From the NCBI GenBank assembly GCA_977862235.1, contig OZ374557.1:1798001-1862000 (forward strand): a stretch of DNA of 64,000 bases, in the 5' to 3' direction. Position numbers and translations under genes: made by a program. Below, one piece after another: positions 17,579-61,200 of the stretch. Source of the stretch: Dudresnaya verticillata (Eukaryota). A model generated the notes under the pieces. The model saw nothing but the letters and a program-made list of their open reading frames with translations. It was not told the origin of the DNA and searched no databases. The stretch's first letter is position 1; the number at the start of each line of letters is the position of its first letter.

Positions 17579-18944
17579 TTTTTTTCAGACGGTGTGGGTT
17601 ACGATCGTAACAAAGTCTTGAGCGACGAAGTCGGCGCGTGGAACCGGGTAGGAATCCGGATTGTCGCCCGTAGCCGGTCGACACGCGCGCGCGGCGTGAG
17701 AGTGGTGTACAATCACCGCTCTGCGGGCACGGCGCGCAGGGTCGCGGAACGCGGGGAAAGGGGCGCGAGCGGGGCGAAGCGGGGCGCGAGGGGAGCGAGG
17801 CGGGGCGCGAGGGGAGCGAGCGGGTCAGAGAGGCGGGCGAGGTTTATCGAAGCAAGGGAAGAGGGCTACGGCAGACCACCGCGGCTGACGCAACGGACGT
17901 TCTCGTCAACGCTGCTTACTCTTCTACTTCGATCGTGCTCTCGAGGAGCGGGGGTGGTCTGCAGTGGTCAGCGGGGCTTGAAGTAGCCCAGCCAGTTGCA
18001 GTCGGGCGCGCGCGTCGCGCGCGGACGGCGCGTTGGTCGCCGACGGCGGGAGCACTGTAAGGTATCTTACAGTGCAACTCTGCGACACAGATGGGTGCAA
18101 ATCGACAGTATGGATGGACGCTGTCAGCGGGAAGGCTTACAAGAGCGCGCTTCTTTTCCCGGGACAGACTGTCCCTTAATCAGGACAGCTGTCCTTTCAT
18201 CGCTGTACACGTGGAATACACGTGTGTACACGTGGGATTGTAATGACGCCAGTTGAACACCTTGTATTGCCTGATTTACGACGCGCCGCTGCGCTCCTAC
18301 TCACGAACGAGGAGCGCCTCTGCGCTCAGGGTATCGACAATGCAGCCGAGACCCTGGCCTGGACACCGGCGCATCCGCCACCAAGTCCCCTAACTGGAAC
18401 GCATTCCACCTTTTAAACTCGTACTGACTGTACTAACCTACGTAACTAATCACAGACTAACGTAGACCCTCTTTCGGACTGATAGAGTTTTCGGCTGTCA
18501 AGCATTACTTATGGGCGCCGGAATAGCCGGCGCCCTCAGAATAAACACTCAGCGGAGTTGTTCGGAAAGTATTCACCTTTTCGTCGTTCGGACGCTCCGC
18601 GCCTGCAGGGGTCGCCCAGTACAGGCCCGGACATCTTACGACAAGTACACTACGAAATACCGGGTCGCAACCTCTACATCTTCCCTCAGTCGGTCGCGCC
18701 GAGTCTTTACCGTGCTTCCGCAACCCCCTTTCGGGTCATCAGGACCCGCCTGCTTTCAAACCTCTACCAAACCTCCTTCAACCTCCCACCCATTAGCGCG
18801 TGATATTGCACAGCTGTCTTTTCGTGTTCTTTGCTGTTCCTGGCCGGTACCATACTGCTAAACCAGCCTCCTTTCCCTTGTTTTAGCGAGCGACGCGCGC
18901 GTAACCGCGGCTACACTACCTAACCGCGTCTGCTCTCTCCGATA

Positions 18945-18957
18945 GTTATGGGCCCAG
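18945..18957 (+). promoter_or_regulatory. Half-tRNA(iMet)-type primer-binding site of copia A
   Basis: GTTATGGGCCCAG immediately after the LTR is complementary to the anticodon arm of initiator tRNA-Met (CUGGGCCCAUAAC), as in Drosophila copia and yeast Ty5. Confidence 0.85.
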
Positions 18958-20964
18958 CGGGAAACTTACGCAGGCTCAAGGGCAGAGACTCGATGAAGTC
19001 TCCAAGGTTTCCCTTCGATGTTTAATACGATGAGTGGCGCAAGGAAGTCGCTGACTGGGTCACTACGATGAAGATCATCCACGACGAGGGTGATGACAGG
19101 AAGCTCAAGACTCAGTACAAGCTCCTAGCTCACACTCTCTAAATGGAGTCCCTAACGCCATCGCAGAGGATTGTTGTCGACGGAGGTAAGCAGCGCAAGG
19201 AGATTTACTTTCCAAATCGAAGTGATCCTGTAAACATTGTCCCAGATGTCCTCAATCTTATCGCTAAGGACATTCCATTGTTCAAGGTCACTCGACTTAG
19301 CAAGTCCTTTCAAAATGTTACGGATTGTCGCCTTAAGAAGAACGAGACTCTGGTGTGGTGAAGTGAAAGGCACACCTATAAGGAGAGCTGATCAGGCAAT
19401 CCCAATAAGGAGTGATCCCACACGGCACCGGGGTGGTAGAGCTTAGTTCGTAGACCGAAGGGAGTACCTCGAGCACCAACACCTGTAAGGATTAAAGGGA
19501 CGCAACAGACAAGGGGGACGGTACAGTGCCAGGACAGCTACACCGCGACGGAGGTAAGAGGAATCCGTGCACGGGGCTGGCGAGGAGAAACCGTAAAGGA
19601 GTATGAGGGTAAGGCTTAGGGTAAGTCACTTTGTCCAGGGTTGCGTACCCGTTTACTGTAGGACTCGCGGTGGCCACCCATTAATATACTGGGAGATACG
19701 CCCCGCGGTCCGGTCCGTGTGGGCCAGACCCCAATGGGTCTGGTCCACCAGGTGGGTCCGGCCCTACTGGTCCCGGTCACCGTTGCGGACATGCTCGGCA
19801 TTCTCATTGGCCGGCTCACACTACGTACTGTACAGCATGATTATAATTACCCAATTACAAATAAATCAACTACTTGGCTCTTATTGGTGGTGCGCGCAGA
19901 CTCCTGTAGGGCATACAGTGCTACTGTGTCACTGCATTCCGCTTCGGCTTTTGGCGCCAGCTCACAAGTGCGCCGTGCGCGAGTCGGCTCAACGGTCGTT
20001 CGCACTCCGAAACGGCCGCTTCACCACATCTGGCATCCTTCGTGGATCGCTGCCGTGGTCTTGCCGCCAAGCATTTGATGTACGCCAATGCGTCATCTGC
20101 ATCACATGTTGGGCAAGTCCTCTCGATCACCCTGCTGCACAATGCAAACCTGACCGAGTCAACACTCACGAACGCCAAGATGGAATTGGTCTCGTTATCC
20201 GAGCAGCGTTTTGAAGAGCAACGTAGACGCACTGGGGAGCACAAGACCATGCTCCTGGCATCCTTCAAGCCATTGTTCGAGAAGAGATCGGCAAGATCTC
20301 CGAAGCAAACGCCATTCCTGAACCGCCGTCAACACGTTCCGAACAGTCCGCTAGTCTCGAGACAGCTCTGTCGCAGCGTGAGCAACAGCTGCAGGACATC
20401 TCCGAGCATGTTGTCTCATGCAAAGAAGAGATCGAGAAGCTGTTGACGAATGCCGATCAGGAAGACGAACCATCAATCGTGGAACGTTTCAAGTCTCCTG
20501 GCATGGAAGCGATGATCGACCTGGAGGACACAGCGACCATCGTCCGCAACATGGATCAGGCGAGGCAGGCTGACAACACAGTAAGCACCGAATTGTACGA
20601 ACGTTTGAGGCGCCAAGTCCAGTCTCTCCACGCGCAGCACAGAAACATGCACAGGTCCATGTCAGCAAGCCAAAGTGGGACCGGAAGCAGCCCGGCACGT
20701 CTTCACACACTGATCGGAAAGGACTACAGCGGTCGTGGACGTGGTCGAGGTCGTGGACGAGGTGGTCGTACAGGTGTCGGATTCCGTGAGAGGTTTAAAG
20801 GCAAGTTCTATGCCTGTGGAAAGGCAGGTCATTACATAGGAGATCCGATCTGCGAGAAGATGAGTGATGTCTCGCAGGATGCTGGCGAGAGCGAAAAGGG
20901 GAACGACGACTCTCACGACAAAAGCGATACCCAGCATTTTCAGCGGGGCCCCAGACGCCACTGA
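18948..20964 (+). pseudogene. Copia A gag (stops, frameshifts, interrupted by solo LTR D1)
   Basis: Degenerate knuckle FYACGKAGHYIGDPIC after an RG-rich tract. Removing 19354-20033 restores the frame (KKNETLASFVDRCRG). Confidence 0.8.
19354..20028. mobile_element. Solo LTR D1
   Basis: TGTGGTGAAG...CTTCACCACA terminal inverted repeat. TSD TCTGG at 19349-19353 and 20029-20033. Homologous to 46357-46980. Confidence 0.93.
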
Positions 20965-23900
20965 GACAGTTCAGTCTCGTAGCTACCCCTGGGGCGAAGT
21001 CTGACATTCTCCCAACCGAGGAAGATCCAAACCCGACCATTGACAATGGGTGTCCTCGAAGTGTAGGCAGCATCGCATCTGCCAAGCGATTGTGCAACGC
21101 AATCGGAATCGAGTTCAAGCTCGAGCCTCTTGACTGTGAACCTTTCATCCACGGATACGGGAAGAATTGCAGTGATGCCGAAGTTGTTTGCGGCATCTGG
21201 AACCTTCCCATGGCAGACATATATGGCGTCCAAGTGGACATTCCATTCTATATGACGCCTGGAGACGGGTTCATATTACTCGGAAATGAAATCTTGCACA
21301 AGTCGAATGTTCTTGGACCCGAGAATCTCATCGAGATACCCAAAAATGTTCAAGCACTTTCAAAGAAGGGTGTGTACCTTCCGATATACTCGGATAGCAC
21401 TGGTCCTCCTAACTCAGACGCGGCCCGGACTTATTTGCTCGTTGTGCCAGCAAATACGTCGTCGTTCAAGTCGTACTTCTCATCTCAGATCGCTCTCTCA
21501 GCGGTTCAGCTCAGGACGAGCGAAGACGTGAAGAAACTGTTCACCAATGGCAAGGTTGCGAGGCGGTTCGCCGAAAAGCTGCATGCTTACTCACACCTAC
21601 CACCAGATGACATGATTACGTTGTGCAAGCGCGGGGGGTTCTCTCCAGTTCTCAAGCAGGCAGTCCACTCCGTGTACGATCACTGCACGTCATGTAAGAC
21701 CGTGGGCAGGCCCGGTAACAGTCGCAAGATATCGTTTGGAAAGATCCACTCGAAGTTCAACAGACATGTACAGCTGGACTATATCTTCTTGTCTGAGATG
21801 GACAACGACCCTATACTGCACATGGTTGATGTGCATACAGCCTTGTCAGAAACAGCTGATGTCATAACTAGAAGGATGAAGGTGGCTGCAGCAGCGTTTG
21901 AATCCATTTGGATCAACCACCATGGACCTCCAGAGAAGGTATCAGGTGACCCTGAGTTCTTCAACAAGCCTTTCCAAGAATCGCTTGGCTTCTTTGAAAT
22001 CATGTTTGAGCTGAGGCCAGTACGGAGACACGACAAGCTTGGTGTTGTTGAAAGAAAGAACGCCGTGATACGCACAATTGCACAAAAGATCTTAAAGGAT
22101 GCTGGGTATGCTAAGCACACTCGTGGTATCGAGATGCATAAGGATGTGATTCTTTCCCGAGCCACGTACCTTAGTAACATCATGTACGGGAGCAAAACAC
22201 TCAGCAGTTTCGAGATGGATAAGAGATACCATTCAAAGATTCTTCGCATTCCTCAGTCGCCTCTCGGTGACGAGCTCATCAAAGCACATGAAGAGCAAGT
22301 GGCACGCTGTGCGCTCCAAAAGATGCACAAAAGCCATATGCCAAAGCCACCATCGAGTGATGAGTTCAAGAAAGACGACCTTTTATACTACTGCAAGCGC
22401 ACAGCAACCGGAAAGGCCGGTTCCTGGAACAAAGATTACGTCAGAGGTGCAGAACCTCACTTCTTGCTCATCTCGTCACAAAAAGGACATGTTGGAAAGC
22501 CAATCAAGGCTGCATACGAAGACGTTCGGGCAGCGCCGAAGACTTCGTTGCTACTTGAGTTGGACGCAATGGGTGTGTTCTACCCACGTTCACATGGAAT
22601 CGTTGGCGATGAAGAGGTGAACGCCGAAAGAGAAGGCGAAGTTGAAGCGGAAGAAGTGCAACCCGGCAGTGCTGATAGGGAGCATATTGAAGAAGCGTTG
22701 CCTGTTCCCACTTCGCCAGAGGTGAGAACAGAAGCAGAGAAATACCTGCTAGATGATCACGAAGAGATTGACATGTCAAGAGTGAATGAGATCGTTGATG
22801 AGCTGAGATTAGCCACAGAAGAACCAGAAGCATGGTCAATACATCCAGCCACAATAGCATTCCTTACTGCAATTCATCCGAGAAAGTTGAATCTTCCAGT
22901 AGCAGATGTAGGTGAAACGGTACTGAATAGATGCAAGGCAATGTTCGGCAAGCGTGCCCACATTCCTTCGAAGGTAGCATCGATCAACAGCTCCTATGCA
23001 CCAGCACGACCGGAGAAAGATATTGGCAAGGTAGAAATGACTGCACCTCCAAACCTTCCCCACACGCTGAAGTCTCAAGCGCAGCAAGTCCTGAAGCAGA
23101 TGTACGACGTCATTGGTGACAAGATAGTCTCAGAATCGCAGCTTGAGTTTGCTCCTCGCTGGATAGTAGACAAGGCCATTGACAATGAGCGGAAGAATTA
23201 TGCTGATCAAGAAGCATACAGGGAAGTGCCCATCAAGTCCTTGCCTCGTGGTTCGAACATCATATCGTCACACCACTTCTTCCAGTTAAAGGCAGACGGA
23301 GAAGCAGACAAACTGAAGCTGAAGTGTCGTTTGGTTACTCATGGTAACTGAGATAAGAACAAGGAAGCGATGCGAAAGGACTCTTCCACAGCTCAGTTTC
23401 CCATCATCAGGTTGCTTCTATCCTTTTCAGCCATACTACAGCTCACTGTAGCTTCCTTGGACATCAAGAGCGCATATCTGCAGGCAGAAGGATTCTCACG
23501 TACTGTGTACATGTATCCACCAAAAGGTTGGGCATCAGTGCCCGGCATGGTTTGGCACATCTTGAAAGCAGTGTATGGACTTTCAGAGTCAGGACGCCTC
23601 TGGTAGCTCACAGTTGAGCAGTGGATGAATGGTGAAGGAATATTACCAGTGCCAGGTTTGCCACAACTCTTCCTTAAGCGAGGCAAGCATCAGAAGATTG
23701 TGCTCCTGATTGCGAAAGTGGTTGATGACTTTCTGTTGGCAGGAACACGGGAGGCCATAAACAAATTCAAAGAGCGCATTTCGAAGCGGTTCAAGGTGGG
23801 CCGTTTCACAATCGACAAGGACTTGGTGTTCAACGGGCTGCATATACATAGTATGGAGGATGGAACAATCAAGATCAACATGCAAGAGTACATGGACAAT

Positions 23901-24697
23901 ATCAGACCGCTTAAAATCCCACCGCCACGTTGCAAGCAACAGGACGCGTTGTGCACTCCGGCAGAGATACAGATGTACCGAGCACTGGCCGGCGCATTGA
24001 ACTTCCTTGGGCATGGGATCCTTCCGCAAGCTTCGTGCGTCGCCAGCCACCTTCAACAACAGCTCGGGAGACTTAAACTATCGCATTTGGTCACAGGCAA
24101 CAAATGCCTTGCTGACCTGAAGCGACTTAACCAGTCGATTACGTACCAATACCCAGAGAATGTTGCCAACCCCAGCTACTTGACTTTTTCTGACGCAATC
24201 CAAGGCGTAGGTTCGTATGGGCAGACAGGTTATGTTTCAGGGATATACCTGCCAGCGGGGGGAGCGCGCATCTACCACACCATCGATTGGTTGTCCGCTA
24301 AACAAGCAAGAGTATCGTTCTCGTCGATAGGCGCGTAGATACTAGCAGCGGCAATAAGCACTTACAGAGGTTCTCTGATGACAGATCTCATCAACAACAT
24401 CAACGCTTCCAGGGCGAAGATACCCTTTGTACTCTCCATCGACTCTCTTGGCTTGTACTCAACAATCACGACACTTCACGAAGTCACAGACTTCCGTCTG
24501 CGATGGACAGTCGCAAGAATGCGCGACTCCTTTGAAAAGGAGAGATAGCGACCTTGCAGTGGATACCAGGTCGTGCGAATCTTGCTGATGCGTTAACAAA
24601 AAGGAACCTGTCAACGTACGAGAAGCTGAACAAAGCCATGTCGATTGGACAACTCACGGCCGCGACTTTGAAGGAAGGTCAGCGTGTCAACCTTTAG
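20938..24697 (+). pseudogene. Copia A pol (PR-IN-RT-RH), several stops and a frameshift
   Basis: PR TIDNGCPRS; IN LHAYSH...CTSC, SGDPEF and VERKN; RT KCRLV, DIKSAYLQ, KAVYGL and VVDD; RH FSDA and NLADALTK. Stops near 23349, 23604 and 24336. Confidence 0.92.
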
Positions 24698-24799
24698 GGT
24701 ACTGATAACACGCGTCCGAAGGCGGCGTAGCGTGTCAACGTGTAAGGTGCCAAGTACAGTAGACCACGCTTTTACTCATGTACAGTATGCCAACGAGGC

Positions 24800-41036: not shown

Positions 41037-41554
41037 TGTAACTAACGGCGGGTTGCTGGTCGCACGAACAGGGAACGAGTTGGTCGGTCGGCAGGTCGGT
41101 GCGCTTCTCGCTTGCACTCCGGGGAAGGAAAACACGAAATGGCTATGTCGCTCTGCCCAGGGGTCCCGAAGAGAACGATGCCTTACTCGCTTAAGTTCAC
41201 GCGCTCGATTTCCAATGCCTCTCGCACCCTTTGGAGACTGTCGGGCAGGTGTTCATCTCACGCTGGCGGACGGGTCTGCTATTGAACGCCCGACCCTTCG
41301 CGGGCCGTCACTGGCCGGAGGGCCTCGGTTTGGTACACACGGATGCGGACGTCGGTCATGAGCGACGAAGAGTAAGGTGCTCATGGAGATCAATTCTCTC
41401 CGAGTCCGAGATACGGCTCGAACGATACTTGCCCTGCCGCTCCGGGTCGCTTCGTAGATCCGAGCTCGGATCACACTAGCACGAGGCGCCTTGGCTGTTG
41501 GGAATATTTGCACCGGTTACACGGCCCCATGAAGGATTTGCAGTAGAAATTTGT

Positions 41555-44500
41555 TCATTTACGATAGGAGCAAAGCTCCGACGCCTTTGTCTTTAGCTTG
41601 CGTTTCTCGGTGGTGTAAAGGAAGTCCTGCAGAACACCGGGCAGATCTTCAAAGACTTGTGGGAGCGGCTCCCAGGTTTGGTCTACCACATCAGGGAGTC
41701 CTTCCCACTCAATAAGAATTCCGATGCCAGCGCTCCCTTCGCGTATGTCCTGCAACTCCATTTCATTCTGATAAGTTGTCTCGGAGTGGGTGGTATAGCC
41801 AAGCAGCGTTTCGTCAACTTCCTCACCTTCCATGCGTGCCCGATAAAGCAGAATACGCCGAGCGTGCACTACCTCCTGCTTTCCTTTTAAAAATCCTCCA
41901 TCTCGAAGACCCAGGGGGACTTAACTCGCACGATGCGTCGAGGCCCGCGCCATCGAAAACGCAGCTTGTGCCCCTTCTTCTGTGCGCGTCGCACCAGGAC
42001 AAAATAGCCGACCTGCAGACTTGCGCCGTTGACGTTCGTGCGCGAATGATGCTTGGAGACGGACTTCGCACGGGCACCACGTGCACGCTCTGTCACATCT
42101 CTATGCATGTCATCGAGAGCCTGTTGTGTCTGCTCGATCTGGATCCGTTGACGGGCACGGGTCTCGGTGAGGGAAGGCGAATCTTGGTACTTTCCAACGG
42201 GAAGTGCCTGCAGCAGCGGTCTGTTGAGCTTGCGTGAGGTAAAAACCTCTAGCGGTGTGCGAAACACGTCCGGGACATTTGAGTCCCGTAACCCGAGACG
42301 AGACAGGGGTGCGTGGTTTAGCACACTCTGCACGCACTCTGCGACAGCAGGCCAGTCCCGCGGAGCTAGTAGGAACTCGTGAAGCAGGGCTTTGCTTGCT
42401 CGCAATACCTCTCTGCAAACCCGCTCGACTGATCCGTTAGCCCAGGCGGAGTAAGCTGTTGTAAAATGGTGCTTCACTCGCAGCTCCTCAGTGAGATTAC
42501 GAACGAGCTCATTTTTGAAATGCGACCCCTGGTCGCTCACTAACCAGGTAACTTGTCCAAAAGAGGATATCTAAGTGGCACTGGCTTCAGCGGCTTTTTC
42601 GTTCGTCGCGCGATCGCAGGACCACAGCCAAACATAGGGTGATAAGTCGTCACGCAGCAGGAACAAGTACTCCATACCCTCGATGCTAGCACCCATGAAA
42701 AGAACATCCAGGTGCAGGACCTCGTTCGGCTTTTAATCGTGCAATGCGCAACCGCGCGGGCGAGGGACGATTTCCCCGTTTCGCGTCACGACGCAGTGCA
42801 GGCATCGTCGCACAAATGCTGCACAGTCGCCATCCATGCCTTCCCACCTGAAACCTTCGCACAGTACGCTAGCGGTGGCGTCGGAACCGCGGTGCCCCAT
42901 AGTGCCGCAATGAAACACGACCAGTAACTTAAGCTTAAGTTAGTCGGCCTCGGGAGGCACCCAGATGCAGTCGCGCTGATAGAGCAGACCGTCGTCGCCC
43001 GTGCTCAGATTTGGTGCTCTGCTCAAGCTATTGTTTTGAGCTGCACGGATGACACCCATGCTTGGCCACTCCAATTCCATGGCTGCAGGAACTACCTGGT
43101 CGGCTTGCTGTGAACTGAAAATGTTCGAAGTAGCCATTTCTCTTCCACGGTAGCCGCGCGTCCAACGCGTGAGTATGTCGGCACACACGTTTTTGAGTCC
43201 CTCGATGTGATCGATAGAGTAGTCGAAGTGCGATAGAAACAAAGCCGAGCGCTGGACGTTTGACACAATATGTAGTCCGAGCGCAGGCTCCAACGCGAGC
43301 GGAGCGAAGATGAAGAGTAAATTGCGGTGGTCCGTGAAGACGTGAACAGGGTGTTCATCAGTAAATAGGTAGTCCATTCTGTCGAATGTCTGAAAGATGG
43401 CGAATGCCTCTTTTTCGAAAGTGATCCAGTTGAGCTCGGCTCCCTTGAATGCGCTTCCCAAGAACGCAATTGGATCATGACGTTGATCCTCTACGAGCAG
43501 TTTGAGCTGATCCGGATCAGTCTGTGTGACTACCCCGGCTAGTAGCGTTTCGAGGCATCCGTGAAAACACATATGACCCTGCCAGAGCGAGGGTACGCCA
43601 GGCTAACGGAGCTGCAGAGGCTTTCTTGTAAATCTTGAAAAGCTTGACTGTGTTTGTCGCCCCATGAAAACATCCGTAGCTGGATGTGCTTGATAGCGCG
43701 CTTCGTGCGCCGACCCGCTTTTGTGTACGCAGACTCGAGCAGGTCGTTGAGCGGGGCGATTCGTCGGGTGAAGTCGGGGATGGCTACGGCCATCCAACGG
43801 CAACAGTGTAGAAACTCACAGATCTCATCGGCCGTCTGTGGTTCCTGCATCTCTTTGAGCCCTGCCATGTTGGCAGGGTCCATGCGGTAGCCATCTGCGT
43901 TGACAATGCGGCCATACCACGTGATTTCCGGAGCAAAAAACTGAAATTTCTTTGCGGACAAAGTAGCCTTTTTTGCGAGCAAATTTCGAAACACCTCTCC
44001 AGCTTTCCCAGTAATATACGCTCGTCCTTGCTGTACACGTTGAAGTCGTCCAACCACGCTTTGAGATTTGGCCGGAGCTCCGCGAATAAGGGTTCGAGTG
44101 TGGGCTGGAGGTATGATGTGGAATTGGTCAGGCCCAGGAGAGCCCATGTCGATGAGTACGTCCCGCTCGGGCAGACAATTCCGCAGGCGTCCTGCGAGTC
44201 CGGATGGACTGGCAGCTGCCAATATCCGGAGCAGAAATCTAGAGTTGTGAAACACTTGCTCCCAGCGAAGTCCTGCAGCTCCGAGTCGATGTGAGCCATA
44301 GGCCATGCCTGTTTGATAGTTGCGGCATTGACGGGTCGCAAAAACCCATGTCAACCAGCTTGTCGACATATGCGTTCAGGAAAGCCCTTTGACGCGAAGG
44401 ATAGTGTCTTGCTTTAGCCTTCACCGGCCGCTTGCTGGGGTCCAGCTGGATCTCCATCGGCAGAACTTTGGCTGGGTCGGATTTCCCCAGCCTTAATCGA

Positions 44501-46254
44501 AAATCGACCGATGCTTCTGGACGATTCGCTTCAGGTCCTGGGTGCCCTGCTTGGATAGACCGTTTTCCGCAGCTTAAGCTACGGCTGCGTCAAGGGCTTC
44601 GTCCAGTCCGACGGGATTGGCCTCACCGATGTCGATGTAGACCTGGTCATCCGGCAGTTGATCGGACTCTTCCCCACCGCGGCTGAGATAGATTCCTTCG
44701 TCAACCCCAAGCAGGGCCGCGACGATGCCGGCTGGCTTGCCACACTCCTTGATGTGTTCTGAAGACTCCGGGGCATTGATGACGCCGTGGTTTCGGTCGC
44801 AGGCCGCCGCGAGCATAGCCTGATTACTGCAGCCAATGGCGTCGAGGAGAGGTCTCCCAATCAGGACATACTCAGTTTCAGTGTCAAAACCATCCACTGA
44901 ACGCCCCTGATAATTAGCTTGGTTCCGTGCGTAATTCTCAGATGGACATCCGCCTTAATTTTCTGTCGGCAAATGAGCTTGCTTTTTTGATCGACAGCAA
45001 GGTACACCCTCGGCTCTGTAAGCACTTCAACTTTCAGTGATGAATCCGCCGCCTTAATCTCGTTGAAGACGAGCGGTGGAAGGAGATTCGTGTCTGACCC
45101 CTGGTCGGCCATGAAAAAGCTCTCCAAAGCGCCCTTCGCGAACGTTGCGCTGAAGAGGGAGGATTTGGAGTCAATATCCGCAGCTCCGAGCCGGCGGATG
45201 CCTCCGCTAGACTTCAAACCGGACTCTCCTCCGTTCGGGGCGCCTCCGGCCTGCTCGCGGTTCTTACGTTCGTGGTATTCCATTTCAAGTGCTTGCACTC
45301 GTCTGGTGGGGTGATCGGGAAGTTGGACAAGAAGTGATTTTCACCACACCTGGGGTTGAGGCACTGCGGCAGGTCGGGAGTGCGCTTCGAGCCGCTCTTG
45401 CCCAGGTCGGGCTTGCTCGGTCCGGATCCGCCATCCTTGTCGGCAGCGCCATTGCTCTTCGACTTTCTATTCTTTGAGTCGCCAAGTCGGCCTTTGCCAC
45501 GGCTTCCACCCCTCTTGGGTTTCGGCACGTCCTCCTGCTGGGAGTTAGCGGCCTCGTCTTCGCTAGAAGCTTCGTAGCGATTTGGAAGCTGCTCTTGCTC
45601 GATTTTCTTGGCCTGATTGGCCAGCTCCCTCATGAAGGCGCCGAAGTCTTTTTGATCGAAGTGCTCATCTGTACGCCAAAGAACGATGTCTTTCATGCAG
45701 TGACGCAGCTGAGAAGGTTTCATACGCTTCAAGATGTGCTGGATGGCAATGTGCGGCTTCTCTTCCGGCAGGTTGGGCATGCCGCCCTCCTGCAACACAG
45801 TCAGATAGCGGTGGTGCAGGCTCCAAACGCAGTCCTCGGCTTCCTTGATGCCCATGTTCATTTTAACTTTGCGGACGATGTCCTCAATGCGACCGAGCTC
45901 GTGGTCTTCCGGCTTGTGGGTAGCCCTCTTTCGGATGCATTGCTTAAGCTGATCCTCGGCAACGGCATCCAGGTTGTCTCCCTTGATCCACTGAGCCGTG
46001 ATAAAGATCCCAATGTATGAGTCATCAATTGAGGCTCGATACGAGGTCGGGGTGATGGTGGTCCCTGCCTCACGATTCGTCTCATCAGTTTGCTTCTCAT
46101 ACAGATCTCTCTTTCGCAGGAATGTGGTGAAGTCCTTCGGCGAAACTCCCTGCAGCCTTGGCGCCTCCAATTTAGTGACAATGGTTTTTCTAACCGTGAT
46201 GGCTCCCCCGGCTACGCTCTTGCTCTGGGTGTTCGTCATCGTGCCCAATTCCAA
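41555..46254 (-). pseudogene. Gypsy F gag-pol (multiple frameshifts and stops)
   Basis: Gag 45214-46254; PR MADQGSD; RT LDFCSGYWQ and AWLDD; RH FTDAS and FTDHRNL; IN SDQGSHF and ANGSVER; chromo-like IEWEGL...TWEP. Confidence 0.92.
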
Positions 46255-46356
46255 GCAACACGGGCAGTTGGCTGCGCAGTATATACTGTAACTAACGGCG
46301 GGTTGCTGGTCGCACGCACAGGGAACGAGTTGGTCGGTCGGTCGGTCGGTGCGCTT

Positions 46357-46980
46357 TGTGGTGTAGTAAAAGGCTCACCTGTAAGGAGAACTGATCAGGG
46401 AATCCCAATAAGGAGTGATCTCACACGGCACCGGGGTGGTAGAGCTTAGTTCGTAGACCGAAGGGAATACCTCTAGCGGCAACACCTGTAAGGAGTAAAG
46501 GGACGCAACAGACAAGGGGGACGGTACAGTGCCAGGACAGCTACACCGGGACGGGGGTAAGAGGAATCCGTGCACGGGGCTGGCGAGGGGAAACCGCGAA
46601 GGAGTATGAGGGTAAGGCTTAGGGTAAGACACTTTGCCCAGGGTTGCGTACCCGTTTACTGTAGGACTCGCGGTGGCCACTCATTGATATACTGGGAGAT
46701 ACGCGGGTCCGGCCCTACTGGTCCCGGTTACCGTTGCGGACATGCTCGGCATTCTCATTGGCCGGCTGACACTACGTACCGTACGGCATCATTAAAATTA
46801 TCTACTTAAAAATAAATCAACTACTTGGCTCCTATTGGTGGTCCGCGCAGACTCCAGCAGGGCATACATCGCTATTGTGTCGCTGCACTTCCGCTTCCGC
46901 TTTTGGCGCCAACTCACCGGTGCGCCGGTCGCGAGTCGGCTCAACCGTCGTCGGTAATCCACAACGGCCGCTGTACCACA
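46357..46980. mobile_element. Solo LTR D2 inserted in the 5' LTR of gypsy F
   Basis: TGTGGT...ACCACA termini. TSD CGCTT at 46352-46356 and 46981-46985. The other F LTR has the empty site. Homologous to D1. Confidence 0.93.
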
Positions 46981-48619
46981 CGCTTCTCGCTTGCACTCTG
47001 GGGAAGGAAAACACGAAATGGCTTTGTCGCTCTGCCCAGGGGGTCCCGAAGAGAACGATGGCTTTACTCGCTTACGTTCGCGCGCTCGATTGCCAATGCC
47101 TCTCGCGCCCTTTGGAGACTGTCGGGGAGGTGTTCATCTCACACTGGCGGACGTGTCTGTTACTGAACGCTCGACCCTTCCAGAGCCGTAACTGACAGGA
47201 GGGCCTCGGTGTGGTACCCGCAGATGCGGACGTCGGTCTTGACCGACGACGAGTAAGCTGCTTATGGAGATGAATTCTCTCAGAGTCTGAGATATGGCTC
47301 GAACGATACTTACCTTGCGGATCCGGGTCACCTCGTAGATCCGAGCTCGGATGCCACTAGCGCGATTCGCCTTGGTTGTTGGGAAGTATTGCACCAGTTA
47401 CATTATGCCTGACGGAGGTGCATTTCACGGACTGGGTTCTTGCGGCGGAGAACAGGGTTGTTCTGGTTGCTGACAATGCAAACGGAAGGCGATAGCCGTG
47501 CAGTCGCTATTCTTCGTGTGACTCTTGCCCTGCTAGAATCCGGAGCTGTGGCACAGCATGGTTCTACTGGGCGGCTTCGTGAACAGGTATTGTTCTCTGT
47601 TTTCGCGATATATGACTCATTGGCAATATTGCTGCCAGCTGTTGCGTGCGGTTATTGAGACGTCCGCACTACCGCCGGTCGTGAAACATCGAACAGCGAC
47701 GGCGTTGTAGTTTTTTCGCGTCTCCCTAGCACGCCAATCCAACATCGACGGCAAGCACGACCGGCGCACCGCGCTCTCGAGTTGTGTGGGTCAGTGTCAT
47801 TTATTGGTGCACGCTTCAAATAAATTAACAAATGGTGGACGAATGGTGGGTTCCCCCCGACCAATTTAGTTTCCATGGTGGCACATTGGTGGACATTGGA
47901 AGCACATGTCCACCATAGGTCCACAGCCCTCAATAACACCCCAAACCGCCATCCGCCATTGGTCCGCCATATGCCCCCGCTTCCACCATCGGGCCACCAC
48001 ATTTCCACCATCGGGCCGCCATGGTTTCTGCTAGGGACGCAAGGGCCGCCAAAGCATTACAGTACACGTGGTGTACACGTATTGAGGGCACTCGTAACGC
48101 GTGACGCAGCCTGCCGCCCAGGAAACCCGTACATCTTTTTGCGCAGCTGCCTCAGAACGCAGCGTATCTAGGCTCCATGGCCCGTACAAGAACAAAAATA
48201 CAAAAAAAGTGCAGAGCCCTCATAGCTGGGTCGCTTCACCACTTTCACTCAAGGAGTTGTGCATACAAATAATATAACACAACACGGTGCCGACTGTTGA
48301 CAGACCCGTACAGTTCTTCCAACTTGCCCTATTCGCAGGGGCGCCCCGGTGTGGCGGCGGTTGCAAGTTCGGCATTCGTGGGGGTGGTGGCTGGGCTGCT
48401 GCTGGCTTCGCTGTGGGTCGGCTATTGTCGTCCTTGATAAGCTGTAGGGTTCGGTTCTCGAGCGATCTGTCGGAGTCGGTATCGACGGGGCGAGTCTACC
48501 TTACAGTACAGCGGTTACACTACCGGTTGCATATTGCTTCGCAGAATCAGAATCAAAATCATTCTCCGAAGGTCGTAGCTTCCGTAGTGCGGCGTCGTTG
48601 GAGAAAGGCTAGAAGAGAT

Positions 48620-52355: not shown

Positions 52356-53001
52356 CAGTCATTCCTTGTTATAAGAATGCTTCGATAAAGGAATATCCGC
52401 GGTAAAGGAATAAGTCTTTCATCCACCGACCCGCTTCCGTTGAAATCAGCCAGTATATGAGGTCTTCAAGAATATGTGATATGGGAATACAGAATCCGAA
52501 AGCCATCCGCCGTGGCCCGCAAAACAGCTCACGTATGAGGGCCACATTCCTCGATAGTAAGAATATGACTTCGGGGCCTGATGTTGATGGTGGCATTGCG
52601 TCCTGCAGAGCACCCAGTAAACTTGTGAGGCAGAATTTGCCTTAGTAGATCCTGCGAGAACTATTGAAACACTGAGGAAGGCGCTAATGAGAACAACGCA
52701 TCGCTACAAAACATGTCAATTGGAGAGAAGCTGAATGTATCTCTGTTGCGAAATGGGCTACTTGATGACTCTGAAGGCATCCCCTCATCAGCCGATGTTA
52801 CGTTAGCCGCGTTCAGTAGTCTCTGACGCGCCACAGAAGTCAGAAGATGTCCCAGACGACGATAGAGCAATTCTTGAGCAAGTAAAGCAACTTAGTCGGT
52901 GTTTTGAAAGAGTGTTCCAACACTTCCTCGATATATTCCCCAATGCGATAAAGGAATATGAACCCGTCCACCGTAATTATTCTTATAACAAGGAATGTCT
53001 G
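52356..53001 (+). mobile_element. Tc1/mariner-pogo-like non-autonomous element (MITE or deletion derivative)
   Basis: TIRs CAGTCATTCCTTGTTATAAGAAT...ATTCTTATAACAAGGAATGTCTG flanked by TA on both sides. Internal remnant ...QKMSQTTIEQFLSK* resembles pogo transposase C-termini. Confidence 0.85.
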
Positions 53002-54254
53002 TACAAAAATTGTGACCAGCGAGCTTCTCCTGCCAACCACTAACGCGTTTTGCTCGCCCACAATCGATCGCTCGAGCTGAGCGTTCCTGGGATCTCACGT
53101 CGCGAACCTTAACGAACGTTTGTCAAGGTGTCAAGGTGTCAAAAGTACAGCTGAGTAGAATACGGGCCTGCTGCTCTGCGTCTGCTGGGTTGTGCGGTAC
53201 CGGGAGAAGAATGCGGAATCCCGTTAACGGGGCACAGTGTGATCACGGATGAAGCCTCAATGCGAAAGCGGAGAGAAGGCTCGAATGATATAGTACAGTA
53301 ACGCGAGGTTGTTCTCTCGGCTGCGCTCAAAAGCCAACAATTTCTAAGTCCTTCTTCTTGTAATTCTCTGGGGCTTGGAATGTTACAGTTTCACGCGACG
53401 GTACCCTTCAGCAATGCTGCGGTGCACTTGGCCGGTGCGTTGTTCGGAGTAAATATGCTAAGTCTTTTTCATAAGGAGCCAGTGCCACGTCTCTGCTTCG
53501 AACCTGCGCAAGCGACGCTCTGGTCGCTCTCAACCCCTCCCTCCGGCTTTCTTTTGCCGTCTTCATTTGCTGTTGCCAGCAGTTGTTGGTCGCCTTGTCA
53601 ACTCGTGATGGGCCCTTGTAGTTTGATGCAGGGACGCGACTATTGCGGGGTCCTTCGAGTTGCCCTTCTCGGAAAACAGGCTGCAATCGGGGTTTCAGTG
53701 CAATGCCAGCTTGCCGTTCTTTCATTGATGAAGACTCGATATTTTACTGGGCATGTTTCAATGGGTGATCTGGCTCATCAGTCTTTCGAATAGCACTGTT
53801 TCGTTCGCACTGTCGCGGGCGTGTATTGCAGTTGAAAGGACTGGTATTGAAGGGGCCCTCCAAGGCTTGAAGGGGGCCTCCAATACCAGTCCTTCCAACT
53901 GCAATCCGCGGAAATATATTTCCTATGCAGTCCTGCCTTGCAGGAGGGCCCGCCGCTCTTGCGATAGAGTAACATCTGCCTCGCTTCAGTACTGCCCTCG
54001 GCCCCCAGCGCCTTAGCTAGCACGGGCGTTCGTGGCGACTCGTGTGCACCATCCGGACCGTAGCGCGAACTTACCTTTATCCGCATCCTTGGTTCTGGCA
54101 GAGAATAAGGGCCGCATGGGGGAGAATGAGAAGGCCCACGGCGCAACGTAAGAAATGAACAGGACTCTTGCCTCAGCTGAGAAGGCTCCGAGGGGCCCCT
54201 GTTCCAGAATAGACGTTCTAATTCACGACGAAGACAGCCTGGGTGATGAGCTAC

Positions 54255-54640
54255 TTCCTGGAAGAATAAACACTTCCTCCTTGACTTGTTTGGTGCTGTC
54301 CTGTTTGCTCTGGGTACGTAGTGTTTTAATGCGAAGACCTCTACCTCCTCCCTCCTGGAGAGGAAGATGGGCAGAGCTTTAATAGTACCTGGAACTGCCT
54401 GAGGTGCAGCTCCGGCCCTATTCTATGCTCTTTTTGAACGAGCATGTGTAGTACTAGTCGTAAACGGTATAGCTAGAGATCCTACACTAGTCCTAAATGG
54501 TATCTCTACAGTATCCCTGAAATTGCCCGATCCTCAGAACAAACCTCCCTCGGGACAGGCTTGAAGATGTTACGTCAATAACCGAACATCTCCGAGCTTA
54601 GAGTAAACCAGTAATTCAAAATGCAATTGCTTCAAGCTAG
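54255..54640. repeat. Diverged LTR remnant related to gypsy G LTRs
   Basis: Shares taatgcgaagacctct.cc..ctcc, cctcagaa and aggcttgaagatgttac with 57686-58110. Boundaries approximate. Confidence 0.7.
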
Positions 54641-55305
54641 TGAGGACGAGATGCCACTGGCAATAATTGTCTACACGGCTCCATGCTCGTTAGGGCGAAG
54701 TCCTGGCGAGTATTACGAAGAAGGAATGCCAAGTTCCTTGAAAGCCCAGTGCACGAATCGTACCCACCCTCAGAAACGAGCAATATAGCCACTGCAATGC
54801 TGCTACGGCCTCGGGAGTTCAAGAAGGGAGATTGTGATGTTGATCCCAGTGGCCAATTGCGTACCCACCTGTATGGACAGAGCCTCGGGCCGCAACAATG
54901 TGACTCAGAGTTATGGGTTGCGGTTCACGTCGTTCAGTGCCTCCATCCTTCCCGTAACTATGATAACCCGTTCAAATACAAAACGTGTGGTACGCCTTGG
55001 CCGGAAACCCTGGGTCGAATGCAGACTGGGATAACACGCATGGGACCTTTTCCAGACGGAGGATCTCGTTTCGGTCTACAGTGCCGAACGCAGAAGAGCA
55101 TCAAGGGAGACCGCCTCTGCCATTAGGGCACAACCGTCCACACTGGTGGCCGACGCCAATACACCATCTCCCCTACTGGCCAGTATTTGCGACCCTCCTT
55201 CTCATGTAGCGTGCCAACATGGTGACGCAGAATGCTCCACGGCGAATGTCCCTGCAACACCCTCGCCGCAAAAAGGGGATGAGATTGAAGTCTCTTTGCA
55301 TATTT

Positions 55306-56847
55306 TCACGGTTGGGGCTCCTTGGGTTCGGTTGGAAGCCGTGGTGGTAGGGCCTCCCATGTCGGATCTAGGTATTTTCCTCCGCCTGCGGCTAGAAAAT
55401 TTTCGAAGTATGTAGGAGTGACATACTTTTTGACGATTGCCAATCGCTGACTAAGCACTTTCTCCACCTCACACTTTAGGCTCGCTATTTTCTGCTCACG
55501 ATCGAACCGGTCTGGGGTATTTGGGCTTGTATATTGTAAAGCAGCTTCCTCTGATCGAAGCTGACTCTTTAGGTCCTCCAGTAAGGCACCACTCCTCCGA
55601 AGTGGCCTTCCTGGCCATACCTTTACACCGTGCAGTCGAATAACATCCTTGAACCACGTCGTACAGACAGGGAGGACCTTAGCCGCCTCGTCTCTGTTTA
55701 GAGTGAAAAACGAATAGAAGTCGATTTCGGAGACATGATTGCGCCTTTGGCGGGCAGTCCGACCACGCCATCTGTTTCGGATTTCAAGCACCTTATCTGC
55801 TTGGTCCTGAGTCATTAATAAATCCCCAGTAAGCCTGTGGGACGGTCTTCCAGCTCGAGCCCTGCGTCGTTCACGAACCATATCACATTCTTCTACTACA
55901 ACAACCTTGTTATTTCTCCCATGTAAGGCCGAATGCGTTGAGGGTGTTGAGAAGCTCTCGCCCTTTTCCGCCAACGACGTTGCGTTAGGGCTTAGGTGAA
56001 AAAGGTTAATACCATCGAATGCAATAGACCCCAAGAAAGCCTCAGACTGAACTGGGTGGAGCAGATTGACAATTGTGCATCGAGGAATGTCCTTGCTAAT
56101 CGGACGGAGTGCCTGCCTTGTTTCAGGATTACTGACAAAGACGCAGCATTCCACTCTGGTCCACTGAGCGTAGACTCCTCTTTCTCGCATACTCTCCAGC
56201 ATATCTGAGTTTTCTTTTAACGAGCAGAATAACTGAAATTTATAAAGACGAGCGATTGCAGTGGGCAAATTCTTCACACATATCCTGACTGCTATCTCCT
56301 TGACATGTTTTCCTCCGGGAGCTGTCCTCTTGTAAAGATGCTGACTTGTTTGGGCGCTGTTTTCAGGAGGGGGAGCATCGTCCATTGGATCTTTCTCGTA
56401 GTTTTGAGTTACATTAATAGCCAAGTCGAGATATTCCCAGGCGTTGTTTTCTGATTCATGTCCTAGAGTGAATAGGAAATGAATATCAATCATCTTGTCT
56501 GGCGTGAGATGCGCAGGAGCAGTTGTCAAGTCACGTTGTCCTTCGATTTGAGGCGCCGTTAGTGCACAGGGACTGGGAAAAACACGAATCGTATTACCTC
56601 CACTACTGTCGGAGGGTCTGGCCTCGTCAGCTCCAGTTTCGGGAGGCTCAACATGGAAGTCGCTCCCAATGAAGGACTTTTCTTTAAAGCCATGACCACT
56701 AAAACTGGGTTCGAACGGATTGAGCAAGCCAAGAACGTCTGATGGATTATCCGGACGGCGAAGTGTCAAAAGTTGTGAAGGGCTTTCAATTCCTTGTTGC
56801 CGTCCTGCTGTATCTTTTTCGGGAGATGTATCGCCTTTCGACTGCAT
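55306..56847 (-). CDS. RWP-RK domain transcription factor
   Basis: FFTLNRDEAAKVLPVCTTWFKDVIRLHGVKVWPGRPL matches the RWP-RK pattern F.L...EAAK.L.VC.T..K...R..G...WP.R, followed by a coiled coil. First ATG at 56847. Confidence 0.82.
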   Translation of the reverse strand: MQSKGDTSPEKDTAGRQQGIESPSQLLTLRRPDNPSDVLGLLNPFEPSFSGHGFKEKSFIGSDFHVEPPETGADEARPSDSSGGNTIRVFPSPCALTAPQIEGQRDLTTAPAHLTPDKMIDIHFLFTLGHESENNAWEYLDLAINVTQNYEKDPMDDAPPPENSAQTSQHLYKRTAPGGKHVKEIAVRICVKNLPTAIARLYKFQLFCSLKENSDMLESMRERGVYAQWTRVECCVFVSNPETRQALRPISKDIPRCTIVNLLHPVQSEAFLGSIAFDGINLFHLSPNATSLAEKGESFSTPSTHSALHGRNNKVVVVEECDMVRERRRARAGRPSHRLTGDLLMTQDQADKVLEIRNRWRGRTARQRRNHVSEIDFYSFFTLNRDEAAKVLPVCTTWFKDVIRLHGVKVWPGRPLRRSGALLEDLKSQLRSEEAALQYTSPNTPDRFDREQKIASLKCEVEKVLSQRLAIVKKYVTPTYFENFLAAGGGKYLDPTWEALPPRLPTEPKEPQP

Positions 56848-57339
56848 TTGTCTTTGAAAGGAGCTCAGCGTAGGTACCAAGTTGACCAAGACTAACGCTG
56901 AAATAATGTCTTCTTCTGTGCCTTTCTAGATGACGATGACTTCATAGACTATGAGCAAAACAAAGAGGTTAAGTCCAAACTGCGTAATGTGAAGTGTGTG
57001 CACCTACAAAATGCTACCGTACATGCCTATTTGATGTGCTCAGTTTTCAAAGTGCTCTGGCATGCTCGCGAGAACCATGACCAGTCATCAAAAGAAAGTT
57101 TGTATAGATTTTCTATAGATTTTCTATCGAAATTGCCTCCTGCTGGATTTGTATTCCGTCCGAAGTCCAATGCTTGATCAATCCTTGCTCTTACATGTCA
57201 CTGCGTACGTTGAAATTAGTCCCGAACCGAACACTGCAGAATTGCCGCAGAGTGTGCATAGCCGCTACAGTGGTACGGTCAGCAGCGGTATATGGCCACA
57301 GGTTTGGGCTCCGCGCCATGGCACCCCACATTATAACCA

Positions 57340-57460
57340 ATAGGGGACGGGAGGGAAGGGGAGAGAGAGGGAGGTGTATGATTAAGGAGTGGGAGGGCTG
57401 CATAGGAATAAAGGAAATAGAAAGTTCACGTGAGAAAGGCTTTTTGAGTAAGTGCAGTGC
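57340..57460. repeat. Dispersed ~140-bp repeat, copy 3
   Basis: Homologous to 50850-50970 in the same orientation. Confidence 0.85.
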
Positions 57461-57619
57461 CCGCTTCGCGCCGTCGGCCTACACGAGCCTAGAACGCAAC
57501 CGTCAGTTGGACCTGGCGGCCTATGCGAGCCCAAAAGGCCACCGCCGGGAGTACCGGTAACGGCGTCGGGACAGCGCAGCAACAAGTAGCAACCAGCCTG
57601 GAACGCGGGCAATGTAGTA

Positions 57620-57685
57620 CAGTCATTCCTTGTTATAAGAATAATCATGGTGGACGGGTTCATATTCCTTTATCGCATTGGGGAA
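57620..57685 (-). mobile_element. Terminal fragment of a second copy of the pogo-like element, abutting the gypsy G LTR
   Basis: TA|CAGTCATTCCTTGTTATAAGAATAAT... is the reverse complement of ~52933-53001. Confidence 0.85.
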
Positions 57686-58202
57686 TATAAGCACCGCCTT
57701 CGTAGTCTTGATGATGATTTTGCGCTCTGTGTGTTGTTTGTGATAATGCGAAGACCTCTGCCTTCCTCCCCTCTTTCCGAGCGAGAGCAAAGCTTTATAT
57801 TCCCCAGAGCTGCCTCCTATGCAACTCTGGGTTCCCGCCGCGCTCGTCCTAAACGAGCCCGAGTCGGTAGATAGCTCTTAACGTTATTCTACTTCTATGC
57901 AGTAGCCGTGAACGTTATTCTAGCTATCTGTGCTATCCGTAAACGTTATTGTAATCACTCCTTCACAGTATCTGTGAACAGTCTGCCTCAGAAACAATAT
58001 CCGTAGGCATAGGCTTGAAGATGTTACATCTAAAACGGAATATCTCCCGGTGCTTGAAGTAGGCCCAAACCTCCCGGTGCTTGAAGTAAGGTGAAACATT
58101 CCAAATTACAAGCAATAGATCGGCCACCGCCAACGGGAGCAATCATCCTTCAACAACTCTCTACACTGCTTCATGCTAGCAGAGGCGCAGCGTTTGTTAG
58201 CA

Positions 58203-61200
58203 TTACGAAGAAGAGATCCCAAGTATCTGAATTGCCTTCCTAGCAATCTTTTTCTTCTTTGTGGAATGAAGAAAGTCTTTGACGCGCTGCGGAACATCTT
58301 GATAAATCTTTTCTAAAGACTGCCATGTCCAATCTATAGAATCTGGCTGTCCAAGCCATTGGACTTGGATAAAGATCCCGTCTTTCGCCTCGCCAATATC
58401 CAGTAGTTTTTTGACCATCTCGTAGTGACTTTCAATATGTTCGGCCTGCTGCATAAGCCTTTCAGAGACTTTGGATCCATCCATACTTGCCTTGTACAGT
58501 AAAAGCCTCGCTGCGTGAACAATTCCCTCCTTGTTATCCACCAATCCACTGATCTCGTACACAGTCTCGCCGATGACTCTCGAAACCCTGCATGGCCCTA
58601 TCAACCTGAACTGTAACTTTTGTCCTTTGTCTTGGGCACGTCGCACGACGACAAAGTCTCCTAACGAAAACTGTGGTACCACCAGGTTGGTTTTCTTGTT
58701 GTGACTAGCAATTTGTCGCTGTCTGTTCTTCGAAACACATTCGGCAACATCTTTGTGCATATCATCTAATGCCCTTTGCATATCGTTGATGTTAAGGAGC
58801 TGATGTACTCTTGCCTGTGTGAGATTGATAGGAATAGATTTCTTCAGTCTTTCGAAAGGGAAGAATGTTCGGTTGGGGCGAATTCCAGTCATGACTTCCC
58901 AAGGAGTTCTGAAAGTTCCATCTGCACGTTTCCCTAGACGCTTTCTCGGAGCCTCGTTGAGGGCTGACATGAAAATGCCTATAACCAGAGGCCAATCCTG
59001 CGGTCCCAGCTTAAGTTCGGACAGGAGAGCAGTAGTCGCGGCTCTTATATGTCGCATGCATATCTCCACGGTACCATTAATCCATGGTGAATACGCGACG
59101 GTAAAATTGTGCGTGACCTTGTGTGCATCAGCCAACATTCCCATCACCTTATTCTTAAAATGCGAGCCCTGGTCGGAGACCCAGAAGTGCATGCTGGTGA
59201 AAACTCGTATCCATCGAGAAATCTCCTTCGCTGCTGTCTCAGCATCAGCATATTCACAAGGACAAATCCACAGGTAGGTTGAGAGATCATCCCTGATAAT
59301 GAGACAGTACTTTAGACCACCAGTCCCTGTTCCCATAAAAATAGAATCAAAGTGCACAACCTCGTTAGGCTTAGTGCCATGAAGTGTGGATGATAAAGGA
59401 CGGGGGATTCTGTTGCCAGCTTTGGAAATAAGGCAGTGAAAACAATCAGAAACGAACTCGCCTACATCTGCAGCCATGCCGTCCCAGGAATACTTTTCCT
59501 TCAGTGTGCGCTCTGTAGCTTCAGCGCCTCTATGACCGGCCGCACCACAATGTGCGACTACCAGAAGCTTGAGCTGGAGGTCCACATCTTTCGAAGGAAT
59601 CCAAAGCTTCCCCTTTTCCATTAGTAGACCATCTTCACCTTGCTGCAAATTCTTGGGGGCACTGTCAACTGCCGCCTGCTGGGACTTCCTAACCATCTCA
59701 CTATTGACCCAGACAAATTCTGGTTCATACGGAGACTGTACTAGGTCTCGTCCAGCCAAAGTGCTAGTAACACGACGAGCGAGACTGCGCTTCCCACGGT
59801 AGCCGGCGAACCATCTGGTCATCATGTCCGCAGTAATATTCCGTGTACCTTCAATATGCTCGATTGTATACATAAAGCGAGATAGATAGAGTGCCAATCG
59901 CTGCACCTTATTAATTATATGTCTCCCCAGCGTGGGTCTGACCGCAATCGGATTGTATACAAACAATAAGTTCCGATGGTCCGTGAACAAATGGATGTTC
60001 TCTTCACACAGAAACATGAAGTCCATTTTTTCAAAGGCCTGAAACACCGCATATGCCTCTCGCTCAAATGTAGACCAGTGTTGCTGTGTCTCATTAAATG
60101 CAGAACCCAGGAAAGCCAGTGGTTGGTGCATTTGATCCTCAATGAGTTTCTCTAGACTGCTTGGCTCACACTGGGTTACCAATGCAGCCCAATGTTCATC
60201 TGAGGCATCCGTATACACTCAGAGAACTTTTAACTGATCCCTATGAGCGAGCTTGACGGCCTGTCGGAGTTGTTCTTGTAGCTCACAAAAGGCGTCAGCA
60301 TGTACACGACCCCAAGACAACTTCGAGAGGTGAATACTGTAGATCCCTACTGAAGTAGGATCTTAAGTAGGGAGCATCACAGCACTACACCAAGCAAAGC
60401 CACACTGAAGCGGCAATAGCTTAGTGGTTTCTTTTTGCTTGGTCCGCCATGGAGGTCGTGGGATCGAGTCCCGCGGGTGTGTGCACGTGCGAAGCTGGAG
60501 AGTAGTCTACAATGATCATTGTAGACGAGGGGCAAGGGAGAAAAGAAAAAAGAAGAGAAGGTAATGTAGATACCTACTGAAGTAGGATCTTAAGTAGGGA
60601 GCATCACAGCACTACACCAAGCAAAGCCACACTGAAGCGGCAATAGCTTAGTGGTTTCTTTTTGCTTGGTCCGCCATGGAGGTCGTGGAATCGAGTCCCG
60701 CGGGTGTGTGCACGTGCGAAGCTGGAGAGTAGTCTACAATACCTTGAATGGAGCGTGAAGTCCTCTTCCCAGACTTCGAATAAGCTTTCTCCAGTACTGC
60801 TCTTAGTGCAGCTACACGTGTGGAAAAATCGGGGATATACTGCGACATCCATTGTAAACAGTTAACAAACTGCGAAAGTTCTGCTCCATTCTCTGGCGGT
60901 GACGCATCCTTAAGTCCACTAAGCCGTCTGGGGTCGCATGCGACTCCATTCTTGTCAATAATGTAACCACACCAGTGGAGTTTTGGACTATAAAGTCGCG
61001 TCTTCTTGGCGGAGATCTTAAGGTTCTTATCTCTGCATATCGTAAAAAAATTATCTAAGTGCGTGAGAAGTTCCTCTCCACTCGTAGCGTGCACGCCGAA
61101 GTCATCCAACTAGGCCTTAACAGCACCACCAAGAGGTTGAAAACACGGTTCCACACGGGATTGAAAATTCTGAACAGCATTAATTCCGCCCTGCAGAGTT

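Follow-up and report, generated by a model that had tools for sequence, protein, structure and literature searches.

A perfect palindrome at the primer binding site position of copia, gypsy and TRIM retrotransposons in a red alga: a candidate for priming by paired RNAs

The 64,000-nucleotide stretch of Dudresnaya verticillata analysed here (assembly GCA_977862235.1, contig OZ374557.1, positions 1,798,001 to 1,862,000; hereafter 'the window') holds a nest made up of retrotransposons with long terminal repeats (LTRs) amid intronless host genes, with a GC content of 53%. Its FtsH is 80% identical to that of Agarophyton chilense, 71% to that of Porphyridium and 55–68% to those of land plants, and the best named relative of the pol of one element, copia B, is also from A. 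chilense (62%). In four of six elements in the window (copia B, gypsy F, gypsy G and a terminal-repeat retrotransposon in miniature, TRIM), the bases directly following the 5' LTR, at the primer binding site (PBS) position, form a perfect palindrome, while the other two, copia A and copia E0, retain tRNA-type sites (Table 1).

Table 1. Junctions and elements in window coordinates (dots in junctions delimit the site; ORF, open reading frame; RT, reverse transcriptase; TSD, target-site duplication).
Feature	Position	Strand	Remarks
copia B site ATCCGGAT	17654-17661	-	10 bp including last A of LTR (17653-17662); arm 5 bp
gypsy F site GTATATAC	46279-46286	-	12 bp (46277-46288); arm 6 bp
TRIM site ATGATCAT	60512-60519	+	22 bp (60505-60526); arm 11 bp
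gypsy G site GAAATTTC	63576-63583	-	TA·GAAATTTC·TAT; 14 bp (63573-63586); same +4 offset
copia A site GTTATGGGCCCAGC	18945..18958	+	after TA; half-tRNA-iMet type; counter-example
copia E0 site TGGTAGCATCGAC	2725..2737	-	tRNA 3'-end type; after lone visible LTR (2911-2738); counter-example
copia B	11030..18107	-	GalEa-like by motifs; 5' LTR 18107-17662; 3' LTR 11496-11030; TSD GTATG
copia B ORFs	gag 17584-15437; pol 14780-12228 (rve, RVT_2)	-	
gypsy F, degraded	41037..47402	-	5' LTR 47402-46287; 3' LTR 41521-41037; TSD not found
solo LTR inside gypsy F 5' LTR	46357-46980		TSD CGCTT
gypsy G	57686..64000	-	RT, RNase H, integrase; 3' LTR 58110-57686; 5' LTR from 63584 past window end
TRIM	60338..60738	+	LTRs 60338-60511, 60565-60738 (174 nt each); TSD ATAC (4 bp)
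copia A	10756-26545		TSD GTTGG; ends TG..TA

The three palindromic 8-mers of a preliminary description of this DNA (copia B, gypsy F and TRIM) were all recovered, and measured arms of 5, 6 and 11 bp agree with the symmetry centre 4 nt from the 5' LTR end (offset +4) and the lengths of 10, 12 and 22 bp that it gave; it missed gypsy G, however, and omitted the tRNA-type copia A and E0. In gypsy G the TA that ends the LTR is mirrored by TA at the matching place in the far arm. LTR ends were fixed from LTR pairs in copia B, TRIM and gypsy F, and their description as securely defined stands for copia B (445 matches, one mismatch and one 21-nt indel) and TRIM (172 of 174 positions identical), whose near-identical LTRs are accompanied by TSDs, but less so for gypsy F, where the pair is only 90% identical (436 matches, 48 mismatches), is interrupted by a solo LTR and lacks a TSD. 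Arms of at least 4 bp occur at 0.53% of positions in the window (~1 in 190). Eighteen control junctions, comprising 3' LTR flanks, LTR starts and the ends of solo LTRs, gave none at +4 and one arm of 4 bp at +5. With elements taken as independent, the probability of at least four palindromes in six at one offset is ~1e-8, or ~1e-7 over 10 offsets; with elements collapsed to lineages (two of four) it is ~1.7e-3 over 10 offsets.

Relatives were collected by protein similarity alone, yielding five copia loci and 79 gypsy loci (from the best 80 of 303 confirmed stretches). Thirty-six gypsy loci of at least 3 kb were screened, and DNA upstream of gag was present in 21 gypsy and four of the five copia loci, 25 in all. 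A site was scored if CA, within the 500 nt preceding gag, led directly into a perfect palindrome at least 10 bp long whose centre lay at +4 or +5. Inspection of the data preceded the choice of the +5 class and of the 10-bp minimum, and for L008, L014 and L032 the start of gag was likewise fixed once the site had been seen. Nineteen of the 25 loci (17 gypsy, two copia) carried such a site, compared with 1.5 expected from shuffles and a maximum of nine in 200,000 simulations; among control segments, 17 of 251 passed the same rule. The window's own offset, +4, was found in 13 of 25 loci, one of which (L028) is probably a chance site internal to the LTR. Seven relatives have the centre at +5, so the earlier claim that it always lies 4 nt from the LTR end does not hold, and the matches seen at offsets 6, 7 and 9 add no further palindromes, since they count these same ones from a CA lying upstream. 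Among relatives whose ends are defined by an LTR pair, the site is present in L012 (4-bp TSD, AATC), L013 and L049 but absent from L061, which is degraded. Overall, seven of eight non-tRNA junctions fixed by an LTR pair are palindromic, every arm being at least 5 bp long. In a quick tree of the RNase H-integrase region (quick search, no bootstrap, midpoint root), one clade (SH-aLRT 97) unites gypsy G, gypsy F and seven +4 loci and also takes in three loci without a site; in the remainder of the tree +4 and +5 types are intermixed, with two Phytophthora proteins as the sister group of L032 (+5). A PF00385 chromodomain is present in many relatives of gypsy G, and gypsy G itself has no match at E ≤ 0.001. 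Scans of viral contigs found no relatives. L001–L005 are LTR retrotransposons on contigs filed in the records of bacterial metagenome-assembled genomes, most likely as eukaryotic contamination of those records, and L049 is a gypsy relative whose LTR is a direct repeat of only ~59 bp (positions 1-59), that of L071 being possibly shorter still.

What is shared among the sites is symmetry and not sequence. Among the 16 elements with offset +4 (copia B, gypsy F, gypsy G, TRIM and 12 relatives) there are 12 distinct perfect 8-mers, namely ATCCGGAT, GTATATAC, GAAATTTC, ATGATCAT, TTCCGGAA, TTCGCGAA, ATTCGAAT, GATATATC, AAGCGCTT, GTGATCAC, TTGATCAA and GTAATTAC, and the seven +5 gypsy relatives carry five different 10-mers directly after CA, making 17 distinct perfect palindromes. 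The five core pairs are Watson-Crick in all 16 +4 sites, with zero G-U pairs; A(-1) pairs with T(+9) in every one, and all four pair types are represented at both +3:+6 and +4:+5. When the right halves were shuffled, none of 100,000 trials reached more than 38 paired cells of 48, a figure to be read in light of the sites having been chosen as palindromes. The three copia elements alone show the same pattern (copia B, ATCCGGAT; L001, TTCCGGAA; L003, TTCGCGAA). The earlier statement that geometry is conserved across copia and gypsy while sequence is not is thus borne out in both superfamilies, and the check that it suggested for compensatory substitutions found changes on both sides of the centre. 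Symmetry reaches into the LTR to give 22 bp in TRIM and 16 bp in L014, and gypsy G, with its LTR ending in TA rather than CA, has A rather than G at +10, as does L071 (noted post hoc). The palindrome after the 5' LTR is a real and selected feature of these elements.

Two other origins were considered and rejected. Transversion pairs (CG/GC, AT/TA) rule out that the paired changes stem from repeat-induced point mutation (RIP) or from deamination, and a palindromic preference at the insertion site is ruled out by the position of the palindrome inside the element and by asymmetric flanks.

The preliminary description took the feature to be undescribed, yet the same geometry occurs in fungal GalEa Ty1/copia elements, where it has been proposed to replace the PBS (Donnart et al. 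2017, PMC5445492; here as below, statements on published work refer to parts of the cited papers). Their Conserved Hairpin Site (CHS) sequence, CHSeq1, comprises the 9 nt after the 5' LTR, palindromic with the last A of the LTR and centred at +4. The CHS was proposed as a PBS substitute acting by an unknown route and treated as a single-origin trait of fungal copia; a complement of Tf1 type was not found there, and an analogy with the retroviral dimerisation initiation site (DIS) was mentioned. CHSeq1 is nearly fixed, being CTGATCAGT or CTAATTAGT in 85% of families, and a downstream arm, CHSeq2, is usual (PMC5445492). CTAATTAGT is found mostly in low-GC families (PMC5445492), a bias that we ourselves read as RIP-like. 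The sites described here resemble the fungal CHS in lacking a TGG start (0 of 23) and in the 9 nt that are palindromic with the final A of the LTR in the 16 +4 elements. They differ in host (a red alga rather than Pezizomycotina) and element type (copia, gypsy F and G, and TRIM rather than copia), in the presence of a second offset (+5) and absence of CHSeq2, and in their 17 sequence variants, none of the 12 8-mers being CTGATCAG or CTAATTAG (nearest are GTGATCAC, ATGATCAT, TTGATCAA and GTAATTAC). Copia B, likened to GalEa by motifs alone, has DIGA, KARYVI, DIRQAY, YVDD, SRPDC, SDAS and ADGLTK, similar but not identical to the DTG(C/A), KARLVA, DVKAAY, YVDD, TRPDI, SDAS and ADxxTK of GalEa (PMC5445492); its TG..CA ends and 5-bp TSD agree, and its gag has an atypical zinc finger. 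Red algae are known to harbour GalEa-like elements (PMC3587641), and the part of PMC2806351 cited here says nothing of primer sites. Bivalve TRIMs, likewise non-autonomous, have no canonical PBS, contain internal inverted repeats or palindromes and have been compared with the CHS (PMC6934838), but a fixed palindrome at the LTR boundary is not described for them in that part of the paper. Across literature other than subscription papers and Repbase notes, our search found the feature only in PMC5445492 and PMC6934838, and in neither gypsy elements nor red algae.

Tf1/sushi chromoviruses offer a second comparison, as their PBS pairs with the 5' end of the element's own transcript in a self-priming 'pretzel' (PMC10085805). 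The elements studied here are like them in being, in part, gypsy elements with chromodomain relatives and in lacking a TGG-type tRNA site, and the Tf1 primer is likewise the element's own RNA. Unlike the palindromes, however, the Tf1 PBS is not palindromic (PMC5445492), and the LTRs here hold at most a 5-nt copy of the site: comparison with the element's own 5' end, raised in the preliminary description as a check, was made against LTR sequence (only partly present in L001, L017, L019 and L065) and gave no Tf1-type copy, with a longest anchored match of 0–5 nt across 23 sites.

We propose, with confidence evenly divided between this reading and its alternatives, that the palindrome is a selected, sequence-free replacement for the PBS, which would allow dimer priming by a cut sense RNA. 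Two co-packaged sense RNAs would join in a helix of 10 or more base pairs, in many cases supplemented by outer U5 helices, and a 3'-OH would be freed by a nick close to +8/+9 (close to +10 for sites centred at +5) or supplied by an RNA end at the duplex edge. The element's RNase H would probably make this nick, on the model of Tf1, in which an RNase H cut frees the self-primer. RT would then copy U5-R of the uncut RNA from the LTR boundary, starting minus-strand DNA, and plus-strand synthesis, on reading into the primer, would re-create the site and could carry the symmetry on into the end of the LTR. Such copying could explain the LTR-reaching symmetry of TRIM and L014 and the TA/TA change in gypsy G. 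Priming, rather than dimerisation alone, is favoured because the register to the LTR end is fixed and the 3' end of a primer sets the DNA end. Pairing of two RNAs is in turn favoured over a hairpin because the central 4 nt, the would-be hairpin loop, are self-complementary in all 16 +4 sites and a hairpin loop has no need of symmetry; the earlier proposal of fold-back or dimer pairing therefore keeps its second half, while simple fold-back is weakened. Predicted self-dimers are more stable than monomer folds at 23 of 23 sites (-6.4 to -38.7 vs 0 to -11.5 kcal/mol), but these energies do not discriminate, because any palindrome yields a favourable dimer energy. A wider reading, to which we lean slightly less, is that dimer priming constitutes a third LTR priming mode, neither tRNA nor Tf1, in which symmetry would be kept by primer copying while sequence drifts, and whose origin or spread may have been independent in copia and gypsy lineages of fungi, red algae and probably oomycetes; non-autonomous TRIMs would use this mode as well.

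Several observations weigh against dimer priming, or against its generality. The tRNA-type sites of copia A and E0 show that the palindrome is no universal rule, and both of these junctions are also predicted to be more stable as dimers. Six of the 25 relative loci lack a site under our rule (L002; L005, which is of half-tRNA type at 24% identity; L060; L061; L071; and L082), although L071 has TA·ATATTAATAT a little farther out than the 500 nt examined (noted post hoc). Nine of the 16 +4 sites, and no more, keep the -2:+10 pair, which means that copying does not regularly reach the LTR end. At single-LTR loci the end was taken as the CA preceding the palindrome, making the pair counts partly circular; the assignment leans on the palindrome itself because a blind LTR-end caller based on the terminal inverted repeat, which proved unreliable, picked the site uniquely in only four of 20 loci and tied in three.

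The strongest alternative, which we consider unlikely but well worth weighing, is that the palindrome is a signal for dimerisation, packaging or plus-strand transfer at the PBS position, while priming would fall to something else, whether a small RNA of sense polarity, an RNA of the host or a plus-strand strong-stop DNA with the palindrome at its end. Symmetry that includes the centre would suit any pairing of two molecules, the DIS analogy was raised by Donnart et al. (PMC5445492), and palindrome-mediated RNA dimers have been shown for Ty1, in which PAL1 and PAL2 drive dimerisation beside a tRNA primer (PMC6844567). Like these and the retroviral DIS (PMC5445492), which pair two genomic RNAs, the sites described here form a self-complementary 5' region; unlike them, the palindrome is not beside a tRNA PBS but occupies its position in fixed register. 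A mere dimer signal needs no such register, whereas offsets of 4 and 5 account for the sites, and no alternative primer site is visible.

Less probable still is an intramolecular hairpin, CHS-like or formed by U5 with a far arm, that is cut or snaps back with no partner RNA. The published CHS model (PMC5445492) speaks for it, as do monomer folds that often pair U5 with sequence beyond the palindrome and a 9-bp stem of -10.4 kcal/mol that TRIM can form. A CHSeq2-like arm was not found, however: the best complement within 80 nt downstream of the 23 sites has 2–5 mismatches in 9 nt (two mismatches at two sites, 3–5 at the others), and several fungal families are likewise without a listed CHSeq2 (PMC5445492). 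Symmetry of the loop bases in all 16 +4 sites, and monomer folds near 0 kcal/mol in several loci (L026, L049 and L003), stand against a hairpin.

We think it improbable to a greater degree that each site binds a host tRNA fragment or small RNA containing the palindrome. Half-tRNA sites do exist in the same genome, and that of copia A, GTTATGGGCCCAGC, holds an 8-bp palindrome, TGGGCCCA, centred at +8. The L008 palindrome, ATTCGAAT, also presumably resembles a tRNA T-loop. Against this, 17 palindromes would each require a matching host RNA, and symmetry would be left unselected. The earlier observation that no site begins with TGG extends to all 23, which argues against host RNA priming but excludes only the tRNA 3'-end type. 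ARAGORN detected no tRNA in the window. At the two tRNA-type junctions, the copia A site agrees over 14 nt with the internal tRNA-iMet complement printed in PMC1797187, and the E0 junction reads CA·TGGTAGCATCG, a motif that can be set beside TGGTAGCAGAGC (PMC5445492). Chance or selective reporting we regard as negligible, since even though the preliminary description gave three elements and left out two tRNA-type ones, and gypsy F, gypsy G and probably TRIM belong to a single lineage, the window holds a fourth case and the palindrome recurs in 19 of 25 relatives where 1.5 are expected.

The +4 geometry has thus been known, and unexplained, in fungal GalEa copia since 2017 (PMC5445492); new here are the red-algal host, the chromodomain Ty3/gypsy lineage, the TRIM, the free sequence, the lack of a second hairpin arm and the second offset. 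Comparison shows symmetry and register to be the conserved traits, unlike sequence and hairpin arm, and makes the mechanism directly testable, as a matter of one RNA or two and of where the 3' end lies. If dimer priming is true, reverse transcription would start without a host RNA in both major LTR superfamilies, and PBS-based annotation would miss intact elements in these lineages.

The 53-nt internal part of TRIM consists of the palindrome and a polypurine tract, and the element is inserted in the RT region of gypsy G. Its 4-bp TSD has the same length as that of L012 (alternatively, it is 5 bp with the last LTR base lost), a match that points to the G/F gypsy clade as its likely mobiliser. 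Both TRIM LTRs contain what we take to be Pol III-like A and B boxes (60417-60471 and 60644-60698; TAGCTTAGTGG; GGATCGAGTCC / GAATCGAGTCC), 44 nt apart in a tRNA-like layout with a T5 run in between. By analogy with the 5S RNA carried by Cassandra TRIMs, these may represent a tRNA-derived LTR promoter. ARAGORN at a relaxed score identified no tRNA in TRIM, and Rfam gave no tRNA-like match.

Elsewhere in the window, a three-level nest at 10756-26545 places copia B within a solo LTR (11018-18862) that lies within the 5' LTR of copia A. The copia A leader holds another solo LTR (19354-20028, TSD TCTGG), 84% identical to the one in the gypsy F 5' LTR, and copia A and gypsy G each have LTRs that terminate in TA, not CA, in both copies. 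A pair of 73-bp inverted repeats (96%) at 52932-57689 surrounds an RWP-RK gene (55309-56925), a G-like solo LTR remnant (~54270-54640) and an 81-bp hairpin (53825-53905), with the 3' LTR of gypsy G adjoining its right arm; this region may be a DNA transposon carrying a gene. Where the FtsH reading frame begins, 48413-48531 is a 70% copy of part of the copia E0 LTR, a PIF1-like helicase ORF at 3078-4928 is possibly a piece of a Helitron, and a tandem array at 5685-6040 has repeats recurring at 178-nt spacing.

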